Of a stretch of DNA of 64,000 bases, positions 1 to 62,389 are shown piece by piece (position 1 is the first letter of the stretch; each line of letters begins with the position of its first letter). The DNA comes from Dictyostelium discoideum. Taxonomy: Eukaryota. The DNA lies in assembly GCA_000004695.1 (NCBI GenBank), contig CM000154.2, forward strand, positions 1,536,001 through 1,600,000, read 5' to 3'. The position numbers were made by a program, and so were the translations under genes. Below the pieces are notes generated by a model, which was not told where the DNA came from, ran no database searches, and saw nothing but the letters and a program-made list of their open reading frames with translations.

Positions 1-3000
1 AAGTATTGTTATTGGGTCATCAGCTCCAATTCAACCAACTAATGCAGGTTTTTACAGTGAATTGAGTGGTGGTGAATATACAATTACAACCATCGATAAT
101 GAATGTGGAGAAAGAAGTATTTCAGTGGAACTGAATCAAGTAGCACCATCATATCATGTAGAATTTGTTGATTTCTCTTGTCCAACTTCACCAAAGATGC
201 AATTAGTAATCAATACCACTCAAAGCTATCAAATTTTTAAAGGAGATGAACCTATATCGAACCCATTTACAGCAGATTATTACGATTCATTTTCAGTAGA
301 ATTGGAATGTGGAGTTAGTTTTGACCTTATTATAAATTTTCCAGATTCATTTCCCCTACTTCAATACACCTATGAAGAAAGTGATTATTGTCAACCATAT
401 ACCATTAATATAATTGGATACAACTCAACACTTTTTCCATCACTTTCAGTTAGTCAAGAAGATTCAACTATCGGATTAGATGCCAATAATTCATTTGAAG
501 CAACAACTGGTAAAATTTATATCTTGCAAGATAATTGTTATAGTTCAGTATTGAAATTTGGTAGAACCTATCCAAAACCAATATATAAATATCTTAATAA
601 CTCTGATTTTTGTGTTGATACTGTTGATATTCAAATTTATAACGCTCAAGATTTCTATTACATTTCATTGGCTCCATTCCAAGGTGAAGGATCAATAAGT
701 TCAAAAAGATATTCAATAAAAGATGGTATTTTTAGAAATGTTACAAATCAAAGACTATACTTGGAGTACAGTTATAGAGGTTGCTCAGATATCTATGGTT
801 TTGAAATTGGTAATAGTAATAGAATGGATAATGATAATTTAGATGTTGAATACAACATTACAAGATATCCAACATGTTATTATCTCTTTGGTGAAGCAGA
901 TGTTAAATTCTATAAAAAGAATACCACTGAATTGGTAGCTTCATTTACTCAAAGTTTTTTCTATTATGGTGAAGGTGCTACTTTTGGTTTCTACAGAGAT
1001 TTCGAATATAATTGTGATGGTTCAGTAAATGGTCTCAATCTTGGTGATTTTAAATTGGAACAAGCTCATGTTAATGTTACAACAGAAACTCAACCAATAT
1101 GTAAATATTCTCAAAATGAAACTACTATACGTATCGATTCAAATACTGAAATTGCAACTTTTAAAATCAATGGTGCCAATGTTTACCCATACAATACCAA
1201 TGGCAATACTTATTATTTTGAATGTAACTCTGGTAATATCACCATTGAACTAACATTCTCAAGACAAACAGAATGCAAACAAATGACAATTTATCATTTG
1301 GTTGAACCAAAACAAGATTTCCACCTTTCATATCAAACAAACAGCGTTACAGATTGTACAATAATGGATGGTTCTATGTTTATTGATGGTTGGGATAATT
1401 TCACCTCTTTACTCATTGATGGATCTCCATATGTCCCAGGTCCAGATTTTTGGCTTGTTGATTTACAGAGTAAAGCTTATTTAATTAATTTTGTAAAAAC
1501 CTTTAGTGATGGATCAACATGTACTGGCTTTGAATATATTTTCGTACCAAGTTTACCTGCTGATATATCCTATACAATCATTAATCAACCACTATGTAGT
1601 AATGATCAAACTGGTACAGTTTCATTTGAATATGCTTCCAACTTCCCAAATCAACCAAATAGAATGCCAATTCAATATGTTTCTCGAGGTGGAATTCAAA
1701 TCAAAGGTACAATTGCAGAAAATTATTACCCTGGAACTTATTTATTCAATGTTTCATATGGTACTTGCTCTTGGGGTGTACCGGTTACATTTAATGAAAT
1801 ACCAATCGATATAACCTATAAACAAGTTTGGAATTATCTTGATGAATCTTGTCAAATTCAAGTTGGTTATCAATTCAGTGCAAATAATTCAATAGCATCA
1901 GGAAATATAGCCCCATATTCCGATGGTTTTACTTCTGTTGGTGGATTATTGTTTGGACAAGTAACAAATTCTTATTTTAATGTCGAAGTTTATTATGCCC
2001 CCTATCAAGCTTGTAAAAAGACATTTGAAATTTCATCTTATGATTCTTATGACCTTTTATATCCACAAGTTTATTATAGCATCGTTAGGAAACCAGATTG
2101 TATGTCATCTGATCATACATATGATATTAAAATTACAAATCCATCAAAATGGGCAAGTGTATCAGTTGGTGGTATGTCAATGGATTCAAATGGTATTATT
2201 AAAAATGTTGTACCCTATATGAAAATGGAAGGAACAACTCTTGGTACCAATTGTAAATATTCTAGTTTATATCGTGATGAAGAGTACAATGAAATTGCGA
2301 TTGAAAGTATTATTACCGATGAGACTTGTCATGGTAGTAAAAATGGTCAAATTCAATTCCCAGATGATCAATATGATTATTATGCATTCAGTATGGTTGA
2401 TGATGAAAGAGTTTTGCTACCATTGGCAAACCCACAAGATAAATATACATTTAAACAAATAACAAGTGAAAGCGTTGACATTGGTAGAGTGGGTAAAAAT
2501 ATATTAAAATCAACTTGTATGCCATTTGCCAATGCAACAATTCAAGGTAGTGAACCAACATTAATTGAAAATATTAATGATCAATGTACAGCAGATGGTT
2601 TAGGTTCAATCAATTATGAAACTTCAATTCTAGGTTTAAATCTCTTAGGTTACATTTATTTAAATGATTCTAGTGAACAACAATTTAATGGTACATTAAA
2701 TGGTATAATACCAGGTTCATATAGAGTTGCAAATTTAAGAGTTACAAATGATTATTGCAAAAGAAGTTTCAATTTATTAGAAGTAAACGTGGGTTCCTCA
2801 ATATTCTCTATTAATATTAATTCATCAATTTGTGAATCAGTTATTATTACACCATTATCTATTTCTTCAAGTTATCCAAATGCTACCTATCAATATAATA
2901 TTACATCACCCACAAATAATTTGCAGCAATACATTCAACCCGATTTATTAAAATTAGATTCATTTGAAGAATTTGGTTTATATACAGTTGCAGTTTCAGA

Positions 3001-3274
3001 TAGTCATTGTATTCAAACTCAAGTTTTCAATATTACCAAATGCCTAAAACTAATTGATGGTAGTAGTGATGATGATGGTGGTGTTAACCTAGGTTTAGCA
3101 ATTGGTTTACCAATTGGTTTAGTAGGTTTAGGTGCAATTATTGCTGCTAGTATTTTCCTTTATAGGAAACGTCAAAGTCCAATTAAAGCAAACCAATTAC
3201 CAGCACTTTCACATGAAATGGAAACAGTTTCAACTTTCCAAGGTGGTCGTGTTGTTGAAATAGATAAATTTTAA
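1..3274 (+). CDS. 5'-truncated type I transmembrane, Cys-rich, heavily N-glycosylatable surface protein. The reading frame is open from base 2; the track 'M' at 62 is a TTG.
   Basis: Continuous ORF from the window edge to the stop at 3274. Many NxS/T sequons and regularly spaced Cys. C-terminal glycine-zipper TM helix (GLAIGLPIGLVGLGAIIAASIFLY) is followed by a basic stop-transfer (RKRQ) and a ~35-aa cytosolic tail. No family assignment possible by eye. Confidence 0.6.
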   Translation, partial: SIVIGSSAPIQPTNAGFYSELSGGEYTITTIDNECGERSISVELNQVAPSYHVEFVDFSCPTSPKMQLVINTTQSYQIFKGDEPISNPFTADYYDSFSVELECGVSFDLIINFPDSFPLLQYTYEESDYCQPYTINIIGYNSTLFPSLSVSQEDSTIGLDANNSFEATTGKIYILQDNCYSSVLKFGRTYPKPIYKYLNNSDFCVDTVDIQIYNAQDFYYISLAPFQGEGSISSKRYSIKDGIFRNVTNQRLYLEYSYRGCSDIYGFEIGNSNRMDNDNLDVEYNITRYPTCYYLFGEADVKFYKKNTTELVASFTQSFFYYGEGATFGFYRDFEYNCDGSVNGLNLGDFKLEQAHVNVTTETQPICKYSQNETTIRIDSNTEIATFKINGANVYPYNTNGNTYYFECNSGNITIELTFSRQTECKQMTIYHLVEPKQDFHLSYQTNSVTDCTIMDGSMFIDGWDNFTSLLIDGSPYVPGPDFWLVDLQSKAYLINFVKTFSDGSTCTGFEYIFVPSLPADISYTIINQPLCSNDQTGTVSFEYASNFPNQPNRMPIQYVSRGGIQIKGTIAENYYPGTYLFNVSYGTCSWGVPVTFNEIPIDITYKQVWNYLDESCQIQVGYQFSANNSIASGNIAPYSDGFTSVGGLLFGQVTNSYFNVEVYYAPYQACKKTFEISSYDSYDLLYPQVYYSIVRKPDCMSSDHTYDIKITNPSKWASVSVGGMSMDSNGIIKNVVPYMKMEGTTLGTNCKYSSLYRDEEYNEIAIESIITDETCHGSKNGQIQFPDDQYDYYAFSMVDDERVLLPLANPQDKYTFKQITSESVDIGRVGKNILKSTCMPFANATIQGSEPTLIENINDQCTADGLGSINYETSILGLNLLGYIYLNDSSEQQFNGTLNGIIPGSYRVANLRVTNDYCKRSFNLLEVNVGSSIFSININSSICESVIITPLSISSSYPNATYQYNITSPTNNLQQYIQPDLLKLDSFEEFGLYTVAVSDSHCIQTQVFNITKCLKLIDGSSDDDGGVNLGLAIGLPIGLVGLGAIIAASIFLYRKRQSPIKANQLPALSHEMETVSTFQGGRVVEIDKF

Positions 3275-3442
3275 AAGATTTAAAGATTTTTGTAATAAAA
3301 TAATAAATAAATAAATTAAATAAATAATATAAATTAAAATAATTAAATCTTTTTCTTTTTTTCTTTTTCTTTTTTTATTGTGTACATTAAATATTATTTC
3401 GTAGAGTTATTTTTATTATAATATTATTTATTTCCAGTTTAT

Positions 3443-3552
3443 TTAAGGACAATGCTTTGGATCATTATAAATTTTACAACCAGAATCTAAATTTAATTTT
3501 ATAATAAAAAAAATTTTGTTAGTAATGGTGTTTTTGTTATTTTTTTTTATTG

Positions 3553-3584
<32 letters not shown>

Positions 3585-4566
3585 TTATACATACCAGTTG
3601 CAATTAAAACAACTATTAATATAATTAAAATTACAATGCAAACAATCATACAAGTACTACCAGCATTTTGTTTTATTGTTTCCATTCTACGATTTGCATT
3701 TCTTAATCTCATTGAAACGGCATCAGTTCCAATTTCAACATCATCCAACATTTCATTATGTTGATCCAATTCATTACTCATTGCATGGGCCATATTCTTT
3801 TGTCTCATAATAGATTGTGATAATAAATCTAATGATTCATCTTGTTCTCTCATAATATGTTGTTGATTTGTAAATAATTGTTGATTATCAAATTGTTTAG
3901 TTGCCTCTGTTTCTTTTGGTTTACCAAATTGTCTATTACTATATCCAATACCTACACCATTATTATTACCCATTAATTCATTCCTTTTTTTTTTTTATTT
4001 TATTATTATTTTATTATTAATAATAGAATATTAATATATAAAATATTAAAATATTATATAAATAATAATAATTAATAATAATAATAATAATACAAACTTT
4101 TGTGATGTATTATTTATTGCAGCATCTAATGTTGAATTTAATTGATTTTTCATTGATATTAAACTTTCGACTTTATTCTTTCTTCTTAGTAATTCTTTTT
4201 CCTGTCTATTTGATTTTTGATTTATAAATAAATAAATTAATATTAAAAAAAAAAAAAAAAAAAAAAAGATAAAAGTGATCTAATCTTGAGAATGATGTAG
4301 GTAATAGATATCTATTATGAAATGAATATGAATGAATGAATGAAAATAACCTACATATTTCTATTATTACCATATGTTAAACTATCTTGTAATCTTAAAA
4401 TTTCATTTGTAATATGAACTAAACCATTTCTAAGTTTAGCTGGTGTATTCTTTTGAACGATACCAGGATTATTTCTTTGTTGAATTGAATATTCTTTTAT
4501 ATCTGCTGTTAATGAATTTATAAGTTTTACAATATTATCATGTTCATTTAACCAATAGTCACCCAT
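3443..4566 (-). CDS. Syntaxin-8-like Qc-SNARE, spliced. Proposed model: complement(join(3443..3983, 4098..4205, 4355..4566)). The 3' end is unresolved: the ORF reads past the TM anchor into a poly(A) run, and a GTATGT donor sits right after the TM at ~3594.
   Basis: N-terminal exon MGDYWLNEHDNIVKLINSLTADIKEYSIQQRN recalls the syntaxin-8 N-terminus (DPW...IQQRN). The SNARE core SQSIMRQKNMAHAMSNELDQHNEMLDDVEIGTDAVSMRLRNANRRMETIKQ with the central Gln recalls the Stx8 core (SRQKQMGQEIGNELDEQNEIIDDL...KLRNEARRVNMV). It is followed by the TM anchor CMIVCIVILIILIVVLIATGMY. A middle exon (KELLRRKNKVESLISMKNQLNSTLDAAINNTSQK) sits between AG and GT sites in a consistent phase. Some donors are non-consensus (GTAGGT, GTTTGT), so boundaries are approximate. 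Confidence 0.55.
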
Positions 4567-7866: not shown

Positions 7867-8505
7867 ATGGAAACAAATAATAATAAGAATATTCAAGAAG
7901 ATATTGCTATAATTGGTTTTAGAATCCCAGGATGTCAAGATAATACCCCATCAGAGTTGTGGAATAATTTAATGAATAAATTTAGTGGTGTTGGTAAAAC
8001 TACTGAAAGATGGAGTGACAATTATCATTTATCTGGTGATATTAATAATGGAAATTCCGGTTTATTACCATTGAAAGAGTGGAAGAAATTCGATCCTGCT
8101 TTTTTTGGTATTAATCCTACCATGGTTTCCACAATTGATCCACAACAACGTATTCTATTAAAGTGTACATGGGAAGCATTGGAAGATGCTGGAATTGATC
8201 CAATTAAATTACGTGGTTCAAATACTTCAATTTTCATTGGTTGTTCAACTGGTGATTATCTAGACATGGTTAAGAGTAACAATGAAATCCAGACAAATCT
8301 ATTTGGTTCAGTTAATCATTCATTATCTAATAGAATTTCTTATTGTTTTGATTTCCATGGTGCTTCAATGACTATTGATTCTGCATGTTCTTCTTCATTA
8401 AACACAGTTTTATTAGGCTGTCAATCAATTAATCAAGGGAAATCTAATTTATGTATAGCTGGTGGTGTAAATTTTATTTTAGGTAAATAAGAATAAAAAA
8501 AAAAA

Positions 8506-11500: not shown

Positions 11501-14500
11501 ATTCAATTTCAGCATCAATTATTGTTATGATTAGCGATGGTACAGTATTTTTTGAAATTGAATCAGTATCTCTAAAATCTTTAATTCCTTTAAAAGATCC
11601 AATATCAATTGAAAATCCAACTGATGAATTATTTTCTTCTTACCTTCAATCAATTGATTCTCTAATTTCTGAACCATCATCATATAAATCGATTTATAAA
11701 AGAAATGAATTTATTTCAAGTGGAATGAGTGATTTATCAAGATCAGATTATCAACAATTTATTTCAACTTTATTATATACAAATTTAATTAAAAGAAATC
11801 AATCAATTGAAAGTGATTTAAGAAACCAAATTGAATTTGAAGAAATTAAAGCAAAATATTGCAAAAATTCAAAATTTGAAAGATTATTTACATTTGTTAT
11901 TGAAACCATTAAACAATATGATGGTATAAATGGTAATCTTAATAGTTGGAATGAAGGTAATATTGATATTTATAAAATTTTAATAAAATCAACAAGAATC
12001 ATTTCAAAATTATTATTCCCATTACAAGGTGAAGATACAACAATTGATACACCTCAATCTTTATTTGAAAATAATCTTTTAGATGACTTTTATAATATTA
12101 ATGGTAACACAGTTATTCAAAATCAATTGGTTGGTGAAATCATTACACAATCTATAAAACCATTAATTAATGAAAAGATGGTATTTAGAATATTAGAATT
12201 TGGAGGTGGTGTTGGATCTTTATCAATCGTAACATTGAATAAAATAAACCAATTACTTGAGCAACATCCAAACTTTCAAATTGATATAGAATATACATGG
12301 ACAGATATCTCACCTTCATTCATTCCAGATGCTAAAAAACTTCTTTCAAACATAAAAGGTGTTACTATTATTTATAGATCATTGGATCTAGAAGAATCAT
12401 TGATTGAAAAGCAATTATTAAAACCATCCTATTATGATTTTGTAATAATGTCAAATGTACTTCACGTTATTAAAGAAATTAAATTTGGTATTGATGAGAT
12501 CTATAAAGTATTATCGCCAAATGGTCAATTATTGTTCATTGAAACTCCTTATAGAATGTTAATATGTGATAGTATTTTTGGTGTATTCGATCAATGGTGG
12601 GGCTTCACAGATACTGGAATTAGAGTTGACAGATGTTGTATGAAACAAAAAACTTGGTTTAAATTACTATCAGAAAGTAATTATCAAGATATTATAATGT
12701 CGGATGATATAAAAGATTGTTGTTTTGTAATTCAAGCTAAAAAACCATCAATTTCATCATTAGAATATAAACTTAAAATTGATAGTCAAGAAAATGATAA
12801 AATAATTGTTTTTGGTGAAAATGATACTTTTATGAAATACTTAGAGAATAAATCAACAAAACAAATTATAAAAATTAAAACATGCCAACAATTTAGTGAT
12901 TTGATTACTAGTAATTCAAAAGAAATAAATAATCAATCAATTATTTATTTCATTAAAACATTAAATCAACTTTTAATTGAAAACTTTAAAGAGATAACCT
13001 TGGAATATATTCAAATAAATCAATTACTATTATCATCTGGTTTATCATGCAAACATATTTTACTTTTAAATCAATCCACAAGTGAAAATTATTTAGGTTC
13101 ATCAATTTCAGGTGCAGCAAGATATTTTGATGAATTCCCACCATTAAAACTGTATTCATTTGATTTTGATAAATACTCTTTAAATAATGAATCGATCAAT
13201 ATTATTGATGATATTATTGAACCAATTATCAAATCTATGAATAATTCAAATATCAGAAAAGAATTATTAGTTAGAAATAATAAAATTTTCTTTGAAAGAT
13301 ATAAACAAGAAAAAAGAATTAAGGAAAATTATAAATCAACATCATTCGAAAATGATAAATCATTATTTGTTCATTTAAATGCAAATCTGGAATATGAATT
13401 AAAATCTAAACAAGTCAAATTAAAACAAAATGAAATTGAAGTTAATGTAAAAGCAACTGGAATTAATTATAAAGATTATTTAGTTTATACTGCTATGACA
13501 CCAAGTGAATTAATAAATCATAAAGGTGAATCAAATCCAGAATTTGGCCACGATTTTTCAGGTATTATAACTCGTATTGGAGATGATGATGGTGATAATG
13601 ATAATGAATTTAAAGTTGGTGATCAAGTTTATGGTATTTGGTTCAATACTACTGCAAGTCATATTATAGTTGATAAAGAATTCCTTTGTCATAAACCAAG
13701 TAAACTTAGTCATACCATTGCATCTTCAATACCAGTTGTTTATATTACATCATTATATAGTTTATACAATATAGGTAATATTCAAAATGATGAATCTATA
13801 TTAATTCATTCAGCATCAGGTGGAATTGGTTTATCAGCATTAAATATATTAAAATGGAAGAATCACAAATCTCATATTTTCGTTACAGTTGGTTCAAAAG
13901 AAAAAGAAAAATATATTCATGATACTTATGGTGATTTTATTACAGGAATTTATTCAAGTAGAAATAAAGATTATTTAAAACTTATTAAAAGAAAGTTAAC
14001 AGAATTAGGATCAAATAAAAAGGGAGTAGATATTATATTGAATACTTTATCAAGTAGTGAACATATGGTATCAAATTTCAAATGTTTGAATCATAGAGGT
14101 AGAATCATTGATTTATCAATAACTCATTTAAACCATAATGAATATACTTGTAATAATAATTTCAAATACAACTATGGTTATCATAATGTTGAAGTTTTAT
14201 TTGTTAAAGGGGATATAATTTCAAAACTATTGAAAAATATTACCTCAGCAATTGAAAATGGATCATTATCCACTGGAATTCCAATCATTGAATTCAATGA
14301 TTCAGATTGTTTTAATGCTATTGAATTTATTAATAAACGTCAACATATTGGTAAGATTGTTGTTAACCATAATAAAGAAAATTTAATTCAAGAATTAATT
14401 AAAAAAACGAATTTACCAATTATCAAATCAAATTATCAAATCAATAGTGATCATCTAGGTAAAAATATATTGGTTACTGGTCAATCTGGTATTATATTGG

Positions 14501-52797: not shown

Positions 52798-55700
52798 TAA
52801 TAAATCTTTGTACTTTAATGGAGATAGATAATTATTAATAAGTTTATTTATGGATTTTTAAGTTTTTTTTTTTTTAAATACCAGTAAAGTTAAATAAATC
52901 GATTTTTGATTATTTAAAAGAAGATGGTATTTTTTTTTTTTTTTTTTTTTTTAATATTGGATTAACAAGATTGATATATGTCCATCTGTGTTAATACGAG
53001 TTTTTATTTAATATTTATTTATAGGCTTATCATTTAAGCTGAAGGGTTATTTTAATCATATGAATTGATCAAAAGATATAATATTTGGGAGAGATGATTC
53101 TGGAATACAATAGTAATTAGCTGTTGTTTTTCTTAGCTTAATCGTTGAGGTGAGAAGGATCTTAGGATCTTTGAAATTATTATGGTCTTTTGCTGATAAG
53201 TTTTTCAGATCTTTTGCTTTTTTGATGTATTCTAGAGTGGCCAATTTGTGCCATTTCTTTAGAAGGGAGCTGTATGATAATGATTCATTTGTTAAAGGAT
53301 CTTCACTGTATATTTGATTGCAAATCCAAATCCAAATGTTGTGGAGGATAAGGGCCATTAGGTTTCTATATGCGAATGATCTGGTTAGATCATAGTCTAT
53401 TGCTTTATAGTTCCATTCAAAGTATTCTTTGTGGAATCTGTGGTTGGCGTAATCTGCATTCACTTCTTGATCTTTTTTGGCTGTCGGTGATAATTTTGGA
53501 GTTATTCTATTAATGAAATTGTTATTTTGCCTAATTCTTGTATGATGCCAGTTTTTACCTTTGCCTGTGGTAATATAGATGAAATTTTTGAGTTTATTTA
53601 TTTTTATGAATTGTTTTGTTTTCTTGCATGAGAAGAACAGGTGACCGTATGGGTCTTTGCTCATATCTTCTTTGCAGAGTGGGCATTGTTTGTTGTGAAG
53701 GTAGTTTATTGGAAGGCATCTGGCATGGAATCTAAACATTGTGTCTCTTGTTTTAGGGTCTTTTATCTTCAGTATGTTGTTGAAGAGTTGATTATAGCTG
53801 TAGCCTCTTAAGTTTAGAGATGATTGGAATTCCGTTTTAGGGATGGTTGGATTTTGGTCTTGAATTGTGGTATACCATTCTGCCAGTGAAAGTGGTTGTC
53901 CATTTTCGTTTTTTATGGATGTGAGATTATTGTTGAAGATTGCTTTTTTGATTCTTATTTTGTTCCATTCGTCTAAGTTTTCTTTTAGGTATCTGGATGT
54001 GAATTTGTTTTTTTGGATTTGATATTCCCAGCTTTTGTGATGAGATGAGTTTGTTTGTTTGGTTTCTAGTGCTAGGATGAATTGGTTTATGATCCAAAGT
54101 TTCTGCGCCAGTTGTCTCAATTCTATATTCCAAATGTTCCAGCCCCCTACTTTTAGTGGGTATCTTGCTCTTTTGGTTCTCATTAAATTAATAACTTGAA
54201 ATCCACTAGCATTTTTGTTGTTTGGTGCCGATAAAAACCATTCGACTAATTTATTGATTTGGTTTAATTCCTCTTCCTTAAAGTTCTCTACATATGAATA
54301 GTAGGTTAATTTAGAGAGTGCGAATGCTTTGAGGATGTTGGTTTTGGTTTTGATTGTTGAGTCAGTGGTTTTCCATAGTACTAAGGATGATCTTATTGTG
54401 TTTAATATTTCTGGCATTTTTCTTGTTATCCCTTTGCCTGTGAAGAAGTATCCCAAGTATCTTTCTGGATTTGTAGATATTGGAATTCTTTGGTTGGTAT
54501 TGTCTGGGTTGCCTATAAGAATTGATGAAGATTTGTCGATGTTTAGTTTTGAGGAAGTGGCTTTGCAAAATGAATTGAAGTGTTGTANNNNNNNNNNNNN
54601 NNNNNNNNNNNNNNNNNNNNNNNNNNNNNNNNNNNNNNNNNNNNNNNNNNNNNNNNNNNNNNNNNNNNNNNNNNNNNNNNNNNNNNNTGGTTGACTTCAT
54701 TGTTTGACTGGATTTCCTCGTTCTTGCGTTTATGTGATGGAGGGATGTTTAGTGTCTTCTCTCTGTTTTCCGAGGATGAATGGATGTTAGTGCTTGTTTT
54801 GTTGGCATTGTCTTTTTGGATGGCGTTGGATGTTGTGGTAGTGGTTGTGGTGGGTTTGACAGATTGAGATTCTGCTGGGTTTTTGGGGGGAAGAGGTTGA
54901 GATGACTTTTTTGCTTGGGCTTTTTTCTCTTGTGTTGATTGTTTATCAGACTGATTGTTTGCTGGGTTGTTTGTTTGTTGTTGTGGTTTTGGTTGAGAGG
55001 ATTTGATTGCTATCCTGTTTTGGGTGTTAGGAGGATCTGTCATCTCATCTTCTAATGGTTCCTCCGTGTTGTTTGTCTCTACTTTCTTGTTTTTCTTTTG
55101 TGAGGAGTAGGTTTTGGTGGCCGTTCTGATGGTAAAGTTTGCGATTTCTGTAATGTGTTGGCCAGATTTCATTTGATCGCCTATTTTGCATTCTATTAGA
55201 CCGAATACTATGAGGTGGTCGGTGGAGTATATAGTATTGTATATTGCATAGGGTATTTCTTCTGCAAAGGCAGTTTTGATGAGGGCGTCCACTATTCCTG
55301 CCTTTTCTCTGGGAATTCTTACTCTTCCTGTGAGGACGTGGAAGTCTCTACTGGAGGTGATGAAGGTTCCCAATTTGCTTCTATCTCTAATGATATTTAG
55401 GAGAGATTGTTCGTTTTTAATCATCAGGTGGATCATTTTTCTAGTTCCTTTGCCTATGTATATCTTGTCGATTGGGATATCGTAGTTTGAGAGTGTTTTT
55501 CTCATTTCTTCTAACCCCTTGAGATCCATTTTGGGGAATTCGAGTGTAATTGGGTAGAATCCGTTGTTCTTCTCGTAGGTTGAGAGCGCAGTCATGTTCA
55601 ATATGGTCTCGCAGTATTTGGAGATGTCTTTGAGGCCTATTGATAGTTTGGGGTAGGTCTCCTTTATCTCTGCTGTTTTTGTGGAGAATTCCTTAATGAA

Positions 55701-55990
55701 GTTCTCCGATGCCTCGTCCATATGGGTGGAGGGGTTGGCCATTTTAGCCGCGTCTGCGTAGGAATTCATCTCGATGGGATTCCTTTGAATCGGCGATTTG
55801 GTAAGTTAGATCTGTAGATCGTGGTGGATTGGTGATTTTTTTTGAAAGATTGGTTAAAATTGACCGAGATTAAGGATAGAAAAGGATGAATTACTTTTCA
55901 CGTGTATCTTGTATCCTCTTGATCGCGGTACGGGTTTTTTAAGATGGTATTGATCTATATCAAATAGTCTTCTGATTGTTTGTAATATGG
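52757..55990 (-). mobile_element. TRE-type (tRNA gene-targeted) non-LTR retrotransposon, orientation minus. Placement ~90-150 bp downstream of a tRNA gene is consistent with the TRE3 class. An assembly gap interrupts it internally.
   Basis: ORF1 (54688..55769, gag-like, MNSYADAAKMANPSTHMDEASENF...) is followed by the C-terminal part of ORF2 (53056..54587), which ends in a CCHC-type zinc knuckle (CPLCKEDMSKDPYGHLFFSCKK). The RT core is missing behind the N gap. The 5' UTR (55770..~55990) is GC-richer than the genome. Plus-strand poly(T) runs at 52757..52792 and 52925..52950 would be oligo(A) on the element strand. The boundaries are approximate. Confidence 0.65.
54588..54687. other. Assembly gap: exactly 100 N inside the retrotransposon, between ORF1 and the ORF2 C-terminal fragment
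   Basis: A run of n characters. A 100-N placeholder implies unknown true length, so the missing APE/RT domains of ORF2 probably lie here. Confidence 0.95.
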
Positions 55991-56073: not shown

Positions 56074-56146
56074 CGCCTAGACATGGGATCGAACCATGGA
56101 CCTAGCGGTTAACAGCCGCTCGCTCTGCCTACTGAGCCATCCAGGC
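56074..56146 (-). tRNA. tRNA-Asn (anticodon GUU), 73 nt, no intron
   Basis: Minus-strand sequence GCCTGGATGGCTCAGTAGGCAGAGCGAGCGGCTGTTAACCGCTAGGTCCATGGTTCGATCCCATGTCTAGGCG. Acceptor stem GCCTGGA/TCTAGGC (one G-U). D stem GCTC/GAGC. Anticodon stem AGCGG/CCGCT with loop CTGTTAA. T arm CATGG-TTCGATC-CCATG. Discriminator G. TTTT terminator 3 nt downstream. Confidence 0.9.
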
Positions 56147-56236
56147 ATTTTTATATTTTTTTATAAATTTAGCTCCTTCTGATTTTTGATAAAGAAATAA
56201 TAATAATAATAATAATAAAAAAATAAGAATAACAAG

Positions 56237-56278
<42 letters not shown>

Positions 56279-56349
56279 ATAAATAAACTCTCCTAGAACA
56301 CACTCAAATTGAGTGATGTTATTAAAAAAAAAATTTTTGATAAAGAAAT

Positions 56350-56427
56350 GTATACGGCCATACTAGGTTGGAAACACATCATCCCGTTCGATCTGATAAT
56401 TAAATCGACCTCAGGCCTTCCAAGTCC
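56350..56427 (+). pseudogene. 5' two-thirds of a 5S rRNA (retro-fragment), bracketed by direct repeats AAAATTTTTGATAAAGAAA
   Basis: GTATACGGCCATACTAGGTTGGAAACACATCATCCCGTTCGATCTGATAATTAAATCGACCTCAGGCCTTCCAAGTCC has the 5S helix I-III signature (GGCCATAC...CCCGTTCGATCTGA...) but stops at ~78 nt. The flanking motif TTTTTGATAAAGAAA occurs at 56184, 56333 and 56441. Confidence 0.55.
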
Positions 56428-56474
56428 AATTCAAAAAAAATTTTTGATAAAGAAAATTTAATTTTTTTTTTTTT

Positions 56475-56668
56475 TTGATAAATTACCAAATAAGCTTTTT
56501 TTTTTTTCTTTCTTTATTTTAGCTCAAAGCAGATTTTTTATTTATAATGCCTTATCTATTTAAAAAAACATCTTTTATAAACCATCAAATAAGCTTTTTT
56601 ATATTCTTTTTTTATTTTAGCTCAAAGCCAATTTTTTATTTTGGTAATTTATTTCCATAATAATAAAC
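56475..56668. repeat. Two tandem copies of a ~95-bp repeat (CAAATAAGCTTTTTT...TTATTTTAGCTCAAAGC(A/C)NATTTTTTATTT)
   Basis: Copy 1 is about 56475..56570 and copy 2 about 56581..56668, with the shared core visible by eye. Probably a terminal or internal repeat of a decayed element. Confidence 0.5.
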
Positions 56669-56880
56669 ATTGCACAAATTAGCTAGAATTTAAAAAAGAG
56701 AAAATTAAAAACTAACTCTTGAACGGACCAGAGAAATTTTAAATATCCAAATGAATTCCTTAAACAAATAAATAAATTAAGAAAATTTGTTTGAAAAGTT
56801 TATTGTATTCCAGAATAAGTGTTTCCAAGCATAGTATCCTTCGAGCAATTTAATAATTACAACTTATTATTGAATTTGTT

Positions 56881-57047
56881 TATTCAGAGGGTATGTTGCC
56901 ATCATATAGAATAGTTCTGGATACTACTTCAATCACCATTACAAAGAGAGTAGGTGATAATGGATCTCCCTGTTTTACTCCTCTTTTTATAGTAAAGGGG
57001 GGTGTGGGTTTTCCATTGATTTTTATCCTGGTTTGAGTCTGTCAGTG
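56881..57047 (-). mobile_element. Remnant of a non-LTR retrotransposon reverse transcriptase, ~55 codons, truncated on both sides
   Basis: The minus strand translates TRIKINGKPTPPFTIKRGVKQGDPLSPTLFVMVIEVVSRTILYDGNIPSE*, the canonical LINE RT block (GVRQGDPLSPLLF). It is bounded by a stop upstream and a stop after ...PSE. Confidence 0.6.
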
Positions 57048-57365
57048 GTTTCATAATTAGGTTTGTTAGGTTGGTGAGAACTTTGATATGTTGAAGCGTT
57101 CTAAGTATTGATTTGGAAAGAGTTATTTATCTCTGATTTTTTTTTTTTTTTTAATATTATAAAATCAGTGTTTATCCATTAAAGGAAATAAACATTAAAT
57201 AATAGTTTTATTTATGAATTTTAATTTAAAAAATAAAGTGGTTATTCTTTTTTAATTTGAGTTATCAAAGAGTTTTAATTTTAAAATGAAGTGTAGTTAA
57301 AATTGGTTTTGTGAATTGTTCGATTGGGGTTAGATATAATTTCAGTTATTTTTTTTATTTTTTTT

Positions 57366-57613
57366 TATTTTAGTTTATGATAATGAAAAGAGAGAATGAA
57401 TGTATAGAAAATGGAGAAAAAAGAAATAATGTAAATTCATTTAATAGAATCATTAAGCTAACAGTAACTGATGGTATTGAATATAGTGAATTATTATTTT
57501 GGAAGATATTTAGAAATATAGTGACAATAAAATAATAATGTCAATTATTTCTTTTTTATTTCCAAGATATATTTTCGCAATTTTTTTATAATTTCTTTTT
57601 ATTTTTTAATTTT

Positions 57614-57650
<37 letters not shown>

Positions 57651-57790
57651 CATGTATTAATAATAATGACCAATCAGATTCAGCATCTCCTTCAATTACC
57701 ATTCAAGATATTGAAACATTTATAAAAATAACACCAAAAGAAAAATTAAAATCAACATTAGAAACCCAATAAATTCCAACTTTAATAATA
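57366..57790 (+). pseudogene. Truncated, internally deleted duplicate of the 5' part of the downstream gene (58285..60861)
   Basis: 57370..57555 is ~96% identical to 58270..58455 (MKRENECIENGEKRNNVNSFNRIIKLTVTDGIEYSELLFWKIFRNIV then a stop). 57658..57790 matches 59283..59412 (DQSDSASPSITIQDIETFIKITPKEKLKSTL). About 830 bp between the two blocks is missing in the copy. Confidence 0.65.
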
Positions 57791-57975
57791 ATTATCATTA
57801 TTAATAAGTTATAAAAAAAAAAAAAGGCGCTCTTTTGAATAATCAAAAAATGAAATGAATTATTATTATTATTATTATTATTAATAAGTTATAAAAAAAA
57901 ACAATGGGAGAGGGGTGATTTTTACTTTTTTTTGTTTATTTAATTATTTAATTATTTAATTATTTATCTATTAAT

Positions 57976-58134
57976 TTGCATCCATATTAATTTCAGCAGT
58001 CATATTAATTTCAGCAGCCATATTAATTTGCAACCATATTAATTTCAGCAGGCTAAAATAAATATGACTATTAAGTTGCAGCCATATTAATTTCAGCAGC
58101 CATATTAATTTGTAACCATATTAATTTTGGCATG
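57976..58134. repeat. Minisatellite of ~8 tandem units of a 16-18-bp motif CCATATTAATTT(C/G)(A/C)A(G/A)C(A/C)
   Basis: Units such as CATATTAATTTCAGCAG(T/C), CATATTAATTTGCAAC and CATATTAATTTGTAAC are directly visible. The array lies between the pseudogene copy and the intact gene start. Confidence 0.75.
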
Positions 58135-58284
58135 GGACATTCAGTGCGAAAAAAAAAAATAAAAAAAAAAATAAAAAAATGAATAAAAAAATAAATAAAA
58201 AAATAAAAAAATAAAAAAATAAAATAAAAAATAGTATATTGCAACGTAATAAACTATTTTTTTTATTTATTTTAGTTTATAATA

Positions 58285-59059
58285 ATGAAAAGAGAGAATG
58301 AATGTAAAGAAAATGGGGAAAAAAGAAATAATGTAAATTCATTTAATAAAATCATTAAGCTAACAGTAACTGATGGTATTGAATATAGTGAATTATTATT
58401 TTGGAAGATATTTAGAAATATAGTGATCAATAAAATAATAATGTCATTCATGGATAAACGATTTACACCAAAATATAAAACAATTTCAGATGGAGCTGAA
58501 ATGATTCGAAATAATCAATTCAGTCTATTAAAAGATAAAATTAAAATAAATTGCAGATATTTACATTTTTATGACAAAAAAGGTTGTGAGATTGAAATTT
58601 TAAATAAATTATTCAAAACAATCATTAGCGATAATGAATTTTACAGAAAATTCTTTAGAAATCACCTTTTTGAATTTACTAATAGAAAAGTAATCATTTC
58701 ATTAATTACATCAAAGAATTTACAAGTATATCAAATATTTATAGAAGAGTTTAATCATATACCAACTGTTTATGATCTAAAAATAGCAATTTCAGTTGGT
58801 GCTAACAAATTCATTAGATATCTATTAGAACAATCACAACTAGAACAATCAAAATTTAAAATAAACATATCAAAAGATGATTTAGATAATTATAATTCAA
58901 TTGATACAATAGTTGCTCCAAATAAAGTTATTTCAAATTTAAGAAAAATTATTTTAAAAAATTCTTCTAAATTTTTTTTTCCATTTAAATTATTAAATTT
59001 AAAGAGAGATATGTTTAAAGGATTACTATGCTATTTTAATTGTTATCAAAGTTTAAGAG

Positions 59060-59155
<96 letters not shown>

Positions 59156-59770
59156 TTCAAGAACTAACGATTGATACTCTTTTGAGTATTCATTCGAATA
59201 GAGAAAATGAGTTGATAATAAAATCAACATCAACAATAAAATCACTAATTAGAGTTTGTATATTAATATTAAAATTAAAAGCAATGACGAAAACAAACGA
59301 CCAATCAGATTCAGCATCTCCTTCAATTACCATTCAAGATATTGAAACATTTATAAAAATAACACCAAAAGAAAAATTAAAATCAACATTAGGAAACCCA
59401 ATAAATTTCAACTTTAATAATAATGTCAAGTATGATGATGATGGTGATGATGAACAACGTTTTTCTAAATTAATAACATACCAAATTAAAGAATATAATA
59501 GTAATAGAAATAGAATACCACGGAAAGTATTCTATAAATCAAAAAGTGGTCAAATGGTTCAATTAATTTGTAAACATTGTGGAGATTCAAGCTTTACAAC
59601 ATTTTGTTCTTTTTTACTTCATTATCGATACGATCATTCTCGTATGGATTTTCCACAGTTTGAAGACGCCGAAGAAGTTAGTATTAATCCCGGTGGCGAG
59701 CTTGAAATATTATTATATACACCCGATTTAGACAGTAGTTTTTTCAAAAGATTTAATAAACAATCAGAAG

Positions 59771-59863
<93 letters not shown>

Positions 59864-60861
59864 GTTGTAGGTCTAATGATGATGATGATGAACATAAAAC
59901 CTTTATAAAGAAATTATTGGATGAATATTATTCAATATTTTGTAAAGATAGATCAGCCATTATATATTATTATTATTACGATGGATTTAATAATATCAAT
60001 TTAGAAAATAAAAGTTTATACAGTGTAGATTTAAAAGAATATTATGAATCATTTAGATTTGGAATTCCAACATTTGACTTGGTTGGTCATTTTCTTTATG
60101 ACCACCTTAATTTTATATCATTGATAGATATCATGAGATATCCAGATAAAAAGTCAATTTATATTTTATTCTCAAATTGTACAGATAGATTAAAAAAGAT
60201 TCAGTTTATAGATAAAACCATTCAATCAATAAAATCAAATGGTTTACGAAATGTTGAAAACCAATTAACGAATTTCTTTTATATGGTTGTCATGCACGAC
60301 GATTTAGAATTAATAAAGTATTTTTTCAAACAAATAAATGGTTATCAATTACATTTGGGTGGTGGGGGTGGAGATTTACATTACTTATATATGTTTAACC
60401 CAACAATTTATATTGGTTCGGTAGATGTTTTAAATTATTTATTTGAAAATCATAGAGAATATTTTATTGATGATAATTATAACTATTATTCCTATTTCAA
60501 GAATTTAAAATTATTAAAACACTTTGAAGCATTAACACTCAAAGTTCCATCAACATTAAGAATTTGTGAATACTTGGACCACTATACCAGAGGTGATAAT
60601 TTTCAAAATTATATATCACATATCATCAGAAACCGTTTGTATTTGAGTATTGATTTGATTGAATCAATTTTTTGTTTCTCTCCAAAGAATACATTATTCT
60701 CAACCAATTCTCTTCAATCTACAACTATTAATTTTAAAACATACAAACTATTAGCAAACATCTTTTTTTCACAAAAAAAACGCAGAACAATAAAAATTTG
60801 GCCATCACTTTACCAAAGATTTTTTAAACTTTTTAGATTGGATGTTTACAAATCATTTTAA
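58285..60861 (+). CDS. Hypothetical protein with ankyrin-like helical repeats, two long polyN tracts and one C2H2-type zinc finger (CKHCGDSSFTTFCSFLLHYRYDHS)
   Basis: 858-aa ORF. The repeat-like blocks YLHFYDKKGCEIEILNKLF / LKIAISVGANKFIRYLLEQ resemble degenerate ankyrin repeats. CxxC-x12-H-x4-H finger spacing. (AAT)n-coded polyN. Confidence 0.5.
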
Positions 60862-61321
60862 TAAAATGAAAAAAGGAGCAAGGTTTTTTAATTCGGATAA
60901 ACAGTTACAACTATTTCTTTTTCTAACTAACAGATTAAACATTGGTGACATTATTGATTTCGATGAACTTAGATTCATTGTTAATGATATTGAATTTTCA
61001 CCTAATATTCACCATTTGTTAGATTTGATGTTAAAAAATGTTAAAAATAATGAAATCTTTTTAAGGGTTCTAGAAATTGCTATTGTTAATTCAAGATTAC
61101 ATATTTTAGAATTTGTTAATGAAAACAGTGGCAACCTTTTAAAAGAAATAAAGAATCTTGGCGAACGATTTGATGTTTTTCTATATCGCGTATTTGAAGG
61201 TGATAATGTAAGGGTATCAGAATTTCTACTTCAATTTATCAACCAAGTAGATTCAGAAAAATTATTTGGTCCAAAATCATTATTATATATTTCAAATAAA
61301 TTAAAATCTTTAAATAAATAA
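60842..61321 (+). CDS. 159-aa ORF in the +1 frame overlapping the last 20 nt of the previous ORF. It carries the same ankyrin-like repeat style, so it is likely a frameshifted C-terminal continuation of the 58285 gene.
   Basis: Codon usage is real (ggc, cgc, ttc, ctt). Blocks such as LEIAIVNSRLHILEFV / HHLLDLMLKNVKNNEIFLRVL match the repeat style upstream. The upstream stop (60859..60861) sits 6 nt before the in-frame ATG at 60867. Confidence 0.4.
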   Translation: MFTNHFNKMKKGARFFNSDKQLQLFLFLTNRLNIGDIIDFDELRFIVNDIEFSPNIHHLLDLMLKNVKNNEIFLRVLEIAIVNSRLHILEFVNENSGNLLKEIKNLGERFDVFLYRVFEGDNVRVSEFLLQFINQVDSEKLFGPKSLLYISNKLKSLNK

Positions 61322-62389
61322 ATAAATAAAAAAATTTAAAATAAAAATATTAACTGGGTTTAGAAAAAAAATAATTAAAAAATATATTATTAAGCAATTT
61401 CAAGTTGATCTGTGTAATCATTGATGCAGAATGGTCTGCAAAACTTTGGAACTTTTATCTTTGATCACTATCATTTAGTTTAAATGGATAAACACTGATT
61501 AAACAATATTAAAAAAAAAAAAAAATAACCATTCTCAAAAAAAAAAAAAAAAAGTGGTTAATTATTATTTTTTTTTTTTTTAATTTTGAAATTTTTTTAT
61601 TTGTTTTCAATATATTTTTTTTTTACTTCAAAACATAAAAATTCTCTTTAAAAATGGAAAGTAGTATTTCTAAAAAAAAAATTAAAGTTTTTGATGTAAG
61701 TAATCAGATTTTAAAAAAAAAAAAAAAAATATTAAGATTTCAAGATTCTAAGTGTAAAAAAAAAAAAAAAAAAAATAGTCTTATCATTTACATTCTAGAA
61801 CTGGTCAGAGATTTGTTTTTGCTACATTTTTTATTTTTATCTTTGATTATTTTAAAAAATAATCGAAATCATGTTTAAAAAAAAAAATCAAAAGTTAAAA
61901 AAAAAAAAATAAGAAAAAAAGGAAATAAAAGTAGTCCAAAATAAAAGAAATATTAAAAAAAAAAAAAAAAAAATAACAAATCAAATTTTAAACGAGATTT
62001 TTTAAATCATAAGGAAAATATTTTAAAATAAACATGATAGAATAAAAAACATATTTTTAAGACAGGGGATAGGTATCGAGCTACAATTATCTCTTTTATA
62101 TCTCTTTCACCCACTTTTTTTTTTTTTTTTTTTTGTTTTTTTTTTTATATTATTTTTTTTTTTTTTTTTTTTTTTTAATGAACCAGTTATTATAATATAC
62201 ACTTTTTATAAATAACTTTTATTAAAAAGAGTAATTTAATTATTTTTTAAATTTTATTTAATTTTTTTTTTTTTTTTGGATAAAATAAAAAAAAAAAAAT
62301 AAAAATTGACAATATAAAAAAGAATTTTTTTTTTTTTTACAATTATTTGTATTTAATAATAATTAAAATAAAAAAACAAAAAATTAGAA

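Follow-up and report, generated by a model that had tools for sequence, protein, structure and literature searches.

The DNA upstream of a tRNA-Asn(GUU) gene of Dictyostelium discoideum raises the question of how a piece of 5S rRNA came to lie there between direct repeats. The window, meaning the whole 64-kb stretch that was analysed, had received an initial annotation in which the piece was regarded as a retro-copied 5S fragment, produced by template switching of a TRE reverse transcriptase onto 5S RNA, or else as a filled-in repair patch. The retrocopy reading gains support from the 51-bp distance to the tRNA gene and the TRE5 orientation, as well as from the start at the 5S +1, the CCAATTC followed by oligo(A), the target-site duplication (TSD) and the absence of the insert from three strains. 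Neither the tRNA-Asn gene nor the CCAATTC tag was mentioned in the initial annotation. Between repeat copies 2 and 3 the insert consists of a T, 5S nt 1-76, CCAATTC and A8 (Table 1), and it is very probably a dead chimeric retrocopy made by TRE5-A of D. discoideum.

Table 1. Positions in the window of the tRNA-Asn gene, the repeat copies and the parts of the two inserts
Feature	Position	Strand	Remarks
tRNA-Asn(GUU) gene	56074..56146	-	Rfam tRNA 64.3 bits; ARAGORN; +1 at 56146
TSD copy 1, (A)TTTTTGATAAAGAAA	56182..56197	+	ends 51 bp upstream of the tRNA +1
Insert X	56198..56333	+	second poly(A) retro-insert, between TSD copies 1 and 2
TSD copy 2	56334..56348	+	TTTTTGATAAAGAAA
Extra T at the 5' junction	56349..56349	+	same base precedes the 5S gene in L001
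5S rRNA nt 1-76	56350..56425	+	75/76 identical; break inside loop E (between AGU and A)
CCAATTC, assigned as last 7 nt of the TRE5-A C-module	56426..56432	+	shared with six TRE5-A 3' ends
Oligo(A) tail, A8	56433..56440	+	final A may be part of the TSD
TSD copy 3, then native flank	56441..56455	+	TTTTTGATAAAGAAA

The identification of the segment at 56350 as a 5' fragment of 5S rRNA was upheld by both profile and alignment. The Rfam 5S_rRNA match at 56350-56433 (+) reaches 36.4 bits (E 1.1e-5). It lacks 43 model positions on the 3' side, which leaves it just short of the gathering score of 38, and for that reason the default Rfam scan reported the tRNA only. The reference for alignment was a 119-nt dictyostelid 5S gene on metagenome contig L001 rather than a D. 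discoideum rDNA record; it was obtained by an exact-pattern scan of metagenome contigs, which returned this one contig, and the gene is complete (119 nt, Rfam 95.9 bits). The contig itself, Ga0307414_10074637, is 2.5 kb long with the 5S gene at 2073-2191 between AT-rich flanks, and presumably stems from a dictyostelid rDNA element in an environmental sample. Over nt 1-76 the sole mismatch between the window and the L001 gene is G51->T at 56400 (blastn E 2e-36). The alignment begins at 5S nt 1, the mature 5' end, with one T before it, and the sequences diverge after T76, where the window continues with CCAATTC-A8 and the L001 gene with ACTCTGG. Alignment to 5S rRNA, which had been proposed for defining the truncation point, places it at nt 76 with the L001 gene as reference; the fragment originally given as ~78 nt of 5S stands as such, while its length is corrected to 76 nt, as the last two bases fit CCAATTC better. 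The extra T at 56349 represents either a non-templated addition or a chance identity with the rDNA base before the 5S +1.

A functional 5S gene would be full-length (~119 nt) and score above the gathering threshold. The segment is not such a gene, because it is 3'-truncated by 43 nt and falls below that threshold. The internal-promoter box C of other eukaryotes falls in the 5S region that is missing here, and the fragment is expected to be inert, with no cellular function. A search of papers with the 5S sequence string gave no match.

The heptamer between the 5S segment and the A8 tail connects the insert with a particular retrotransposon. GCGTTATCCAATTC-(A)10-14 terminates six TRE5-A copies in the sampled D. 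discoideum loci, among them a full-length element in L003 and an independent insertion at the orthologous tRNA gene in L006, and CCAATTC followed by an A-run occurs a single time in the window, at the 5S junction. The assignment to TRE5-A was made by element structure and by residues named in PMC3159450, not by alignment to a curated consensus. The full-length element at L003 1905-8302 shows the layout A-A-B-ORF1-ORF2(RVT_1)-B-C, with two A-module repeats, an ORF1 of 464 aa and an ORF2 of 1047 aa carrying RVT_1; its start lies head-to-head with a minus-strand tRNA-Phe, 45 bp upstream of that gene, and a 13-bp duplication, CAATTCCTTGGGA, brackets the element. Counted from its 3' end, the residues T15, C26, A35 and C38 are those named for the TRE5-A.1 C-module mutants (PMC3159450), and the last 54 nt of the element are predicted to fold into three stems holding these residues (z -3.1). 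Since layout, C-module residues and the three stems match, the L003 element is assigned to TRE5-A, with CCAATTC as its 3'-terminal heptamer. The duplication of this element (8303-8315) opens with CAATTC, the hexamer that also ends the element, which may reflect chance or priming microhomology. The C-module with stems I-III (at least 87 nt) is absent from the window insert, which has the terminal CCAATTC only, and TRE5-A retrotransposition needs the 87-nt structured C-module (PMC3159450). Because of this absence the insert is a by-product of TRE5-A activity and not a TRE5-A copy.

[quoted passage not shown] At the window locus the junction after 56197 is found at a TRE5-A distance from the tRNA-Asn +1, and the 5S +1 is tRNA-proximal with the oligo(A) distal on the plus strand, opposite to the minus-strand tRNA gene, so that both X and the 5S chimera show the position and orientation of TRE5-A. 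The insert is accompanied by a 15-16 bp exact repeat and an A8 tail; the TRE5-A copies sampled for comparison have duplications of 12-15 bp and tails of A10-14. The tRNA-Asn gene is the Pol III target that positions the insertions.

The direct repeat reported to bracket the 5S piece, together with a further copy upstream, was recovered in three exact copies. TTTTTGATAAAGAAA occurs exactly three times in the window (56183, 56334 and 56441), always at the 5S locus, the expectation for 64 kb with up to one mismatch allowed being 0.55. The repeat measures 15 nt, or 16 nt when the preceding A is added. Copies 2 and 3 are identical across 23 nt and look this long because an oligo(A) tail precedes each of them, A10 (56324-56333) before copy 2 and A8 (56433-56440) before copy 3. 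When the alternative raised earlier, a TSD or part of a TRE module, was examined, the repeat proved to be a target-site duplication. The interval 56456-56890 was considered as a 5'-truncated TRE5 with copy 3 as its duplication and was rejected, the flank from ~56608 onward being collinear with the orthologous loci L004 and L006 of other strains.

The orthologous locus was retrieved from four other assemblies (L004-L007) via the neighbouring gene DDB_G0294591, and the tRNA-Asn gene is kept in all four. L005 (GCA_054883475.1) is 99.6-99.8% identical to the window and contains the three repeats, X and the 5S chimera; within the insert structure only the internal A-run of X differs, with A27 in L005 and A40 in the window. 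As L005 is an independent D. discoideum assembly with the same arrangement, an assembly artefact is not the explanation. L004, L006 and L007, which are ~82-92% identical to the window, have neither X nor the 5S chimera; these three strains without the chimera are 8-18% diverged, and no intermediate with the chimera only was seen among them. In L006 (GCA_054859385.1) an independent ~133-nt insert is located at 11767-11940, 47 bp upstream of the orthologous tRNA-Asn gene. It comprises a TRE5-A C-module end (...GCAACTAATAATTGCGTTATCCAATTC-A10/11) between two copies of the 15-bp TSD ATTTTATCTAATTTT, and L006 minus this insert is collinear with L004. From the strain comparison, this tRNA-Asn gene is a recurrent TRE5-A target and the two inserts of the window are lineage-specific gains.

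Several other features surround the locus. A TRE3-type non-LTR element lies at ~52930-55940 (-), with its poly(A) end at ~52931-52953 and its 5' end 133 bp from the 3' end of the tRNA-Asn gene, downstream on the same strand; its ORFs of 408 and 466 aa gave no Pfam match, and ~2.3 kb of the L005 copy, with the RVT_1 ORF, has no counterpart in the window copy, the gap lying between 54587 and 54688. On the other side, the tRNA-Asn 5' half and its upstream flank were partially duplicated long ago, as seen at L004 11811-11880; over 66 nt the duplicate is ~85% identical to the real gene in both L004 and L006, and the window copies at 56485-56530 and 56583-56628 have decayed to CCAAATAAGC, a T-rich stretch and TTTTAGCTCAAAGC. 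Positions 56693-56851 hold a degenerate remnant with stops that resembles a TRE ORF2 C-terminus (47% to L002 9337-9495); it is likely older than the strain split, as L004 and L006 are collinear with the sequence around it. Further right, a 4.6-kb block (56888-61472) is absent from L004, L006 and L007, as is the TRE3 element. The block contains a frameshifted reverse transcriptase fragment at 56892-57111 (-) with the motif GVKQGDPLSPTLF; added to the DDB_G0294591 protein query for TRE5 ORF2, this fragment gave one weak match only. An 858-aa ORF at 58285-60861 in the same block belongs to a fast-evolving D. discoideum family whose paralogues are 32-43% identical and in some cases bear the name Rho termination factor N-terminal domain protein; short duplicates of the 858-aa gene are present (57354-57543 resembling 58257-58446, and 57665-57792 resembling 59296-59424). 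Look-up of the window ORFs of 858, 408 and 283 aa returned no exact record.

The additional repeat copy had been counted with the 5S insert; instead, it marks a separate poly(A) insertion, X. This insert is composed of (AAT)n and A-rich sequence at 56198-56236, A40 at 56237-56276, a unique 47-nt module at 56277-56323 and the A10 tail, and the module carries AATAAA and a predicted 3' hairpin (z-score -3.1). No other copy of X was found in the ~237 kb sampled, and no Rfam family matched over it. TRE5-A, TRE3 and rDNA were discarded as sources of the 47-nt module, which was unmatched in every sampled locus; X may derive from the 3' end of a different TRE5 family, or from an mRNA whose 3' end was retro-copied.

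We infer the order of the two insertions from their junctions, the most likely course being that the 5S chimera was inserted first at -51 and X later at the same distance. X would have entered at the same tRNA distance, re-duplicated the target and pushed the 5S chimera outward, and the locus has three repeat copies because the same target sequence was duplicated again. TRE5-A tandems form at identical positions, a new insertion at the tRNA distance of the resident producing the tandem (PMC5391098), and tandem insertion at one tRNA distance explains three copies of one duplication; the window differs in that the partners are the 5S chimera and X, neither of which has a recognisable TRE5-A body. 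Locus L002 shows two tandem TRE5-A 3' parts at 2990-3660 (-), with CTTCTGTGAAAT (12 nt) after each and tails of A14 and A10, and no tRNA gene was detected within this 21-kb locus; by analogy, it offers a precedent for the re-use of one target. As the tails in the window differ (A10 versus A8), no coincidence has to be assumed for two independent events at one site.

In the opposite order, which is unlikely, X would come first, at -51 and with a duplication of 15 bp, and the chimera would follow at the 3' junction of X, at a distance of ~202 bp from the tRNA gene. With the T-run opposite the X tail as primer on the TRE5-A oligo(A), the result would be a duplication of 23 bp (A8 plus TTTTTGATAAAGAAA) and no separate tail. 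This order is consistent with the 23 identical nucleotides shared by copies 2 and 3, with the pairing expected between a T8 primer end and an oligo(A) tail, and with the 37-211 bp at which TRE5-A copies of the reference genome lie upstream of tRNA genes (PMC5391098). It nevertheless requires a non-canonical distance, and a duplication of 23 bp exceeds the 12-16 bp of the other sampled TRE5-A copies. As the X tail is A10, the 23-nt identity merely reflects two tails of at least eight A, and L002 directly displays tandem re-use of one target with different tails.

The insert shows the organisation of a chimera: its two RNA-derived segments share one orientation and are enclosed by one duplication, the LINE end and poly(A) lie at the 3' side, and the upstream segment starts at the 5' end of its source RNA. 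We infer that the segments were joined by template switching during target-primed reverse transcription. TRE5-A proteins on genuine TRE5-A RNA would nick the DNA ~50 bp upstream of tRNA-Asn(GUU), the usual TFIIIB/TFIIIC-guided TRE5-A target, and target-primed reverse transcription would start on the oligo(A) tail of TRE5-A. Because the start would be made on genuine TRE5-A RNA, the C-module requirement (PMC3159450) would be satisfied. The reverse transcriptase would then copy, apparently, the terminal CCAAUUC only and continue on 5S rRNA at U76 through to the RNA 5' end, the junction T being provided by either template (1 nt of microhomology). One extra T would be added and the cDNA joined to the target, with a target-site duplication of 15-16 bp. 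The acceptor may have been a 5S fragment ending at U76 or an intact 5S rRNA entered internally. Pairing of the TRE5-A CCAAUU with 5S nt 82-87 was tried as a guide for the switch and rejected by eye, since its geometry misses nt 76.

Some observations weigh against the chimeric retrocopy. The break point within loop E (A74 G75 U76 / A77) makes the join internal to 5S, while end-to-end template jumps usually reach the RNA 3' end; a join at nt 76 therefore calls for an internal switch or else for a 5S fragment whose end is U76. The tie to TRE5-A consists of 7 nt at a single locus, for which a chance 7-mer match is ~1e-4, and no second 5S chimera was encountered in ~237 kb of sampled D. discoideum DNA. 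Processed pseudogenes are stated to be absent from D. discoideum (PMC3159450), so such retrocopy events must be rare.

The internal end of the 5S part could also be accounted for by ligation at the RNA level, in which a 5S fragment ending at U76 was joined to a TRE5-A 3' fragment and both were reverse-transcribed as one template. Among the routes proposed for U6/LINE-1 chimeras is RNA ligation (bioRxiv 10.1101/2025.02.02.635956); for the present insert it is improbable and weaker than template switching, because a 7-nt TRE5-A tag without the essential 87-nt C-module should not be recognised and selected by the TRE5-A machinery (PMC3159450), a problem that a switch after initiation on full TRE5-A RNA avoids. 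Capture at the DNA level, with a piece of the extrachromosomal rDNA palindrome serving as filler in break repair upstream of the tRNA gene, would have an abundant source in an rDNA element of ~100 copies per nucleus (PMC5391098), and the T before the 5S segment equals the base before the L001 5S gene, as a DNA-level copy would give, although this agreement concerns 1 nt. Such a capture is very improbable in view of a segment start within 1 nt of the RNA 5' end, a TRE5-A heptamer and oligo(A) that do not follow nt 76 in the 5S gene, and the presence of TRE5-A orientation, distance and duplication. The repair patch of the initial annotation is disfavoured on these same grounds, namely the RNA 5'-end start, the heptamer, the A-tail and the position, orientation and duplication of TRE5-A. 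The layout further calls to mind animal 5S-derived SINEs, which have a 5S head and a LINE-derived 3' end, and a 5S-derived SINE-like element with a LINE tail, mobilised repeatedly by TRE5-A, would likewise retain the 5S region up to nt 76. It is extremely improbable here: the region of box C is missing, the ~237 kb of sampled, TRE-rich DNA yielded no further copy, and the tail, at 7 nt, is far too short for mobilisation, which takes 87 nt of C-module (PMC3159450).

Among known insertions, the chimeric retrocopy resembles 5'-truncated TRE5-A copies (solo C-modules) in target window, orientation, duplication length, terminal CCAATTC and short oligo(A), and differs from them in that 5S rRNA replaces everything upstream of the last 7 nt; a copy of the solo C-module type is the one carried by L006 at the orthologous tRNA gene. 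In human, 5S rRNA/LINE-1 chimeric insertions were reportedly described in earlier work by Buzdin and colleagues. Chimeric insertions of 5S rRNA/LINE-1 and of U6/LINE-1 are documented in mammals (bioRxiv 10.1101/2025.02.02.635956). Like the window insert, the human 5S/LINE-1 chimeras have a 5S part starting at nt 1 and usually truncated, fused to a LINE 3' end with poly(A) and flanked by a target-site duplication; the human ones were inserted in one event, as the window insert probably was. Unlike the window insert, they are mostly antisense to L1, are truncated at ~nt 46 or 90 and contain long L1 segments, whereas in the window 5S is in sense, ends at nt 76 and is followed by a LINE part of 7 nt. 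The LINE is different as well, since in contrast to human L1 it targets tRNA genes, resides in an amoebozoan host and recognises its own 3' end stringently. U6 snRNA/LINE-1 chimeras, which are explained by template switching or RNA ligation, share the sense Pol III transcript located 5' of the LINE 3' end and the single duplication; their U6 is full-length, while the small RNA in the window is 3'-truncated, and host and LINE clade differ. The literature search found no paper describing such a chimera in Dictyostelium, and the process appears to be of a known kind that is apparently unreported in D. discoideum.

TRE5-A has been regarded as strictly C-module-specific, and this specificity was used to explain the reported lack of processed pseudogenes in D. 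discoideum (PMC3159450). In its sequence the locus gives direct evidence that, in vivo, the TRE5-A reverse transcriptase is able to depart from its own RNA and to copy RNA of the host. With it, the range of LINE/5S chimeras reaches beyond mammals to a tRNA-targeting LINE of an amoebozoan, at a single locus so far. Furthermore, the locus indicates that nested arrays sharing one target duplication arise by repeated insertion at one Pol III-defined position. Since TRE5-A reverse-transcribes directly at TFIIIB/TFIIIC-bound Pol III loci, it is conceivable, though decidedly doubtful at present, that its reverse transcriptase recurrently jumps onto local Pol III transcripts or their fragments (5S, tRNA) and that a small hidden class of Pol III-RNA/TRE5-A chimeras lies upstream of tRNA genes in D. 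discoideum genomes. If this were so, X might represent a similar capture, in its case of an mRNA 3' end, and the matter would grow in importance if the genome showed a class of such chimeras. With such a class, the published absence of processed pseudogenes would have to be qualified, and the chimeras would constitute a record of the RNAs present near TRE5-A integration complexes.
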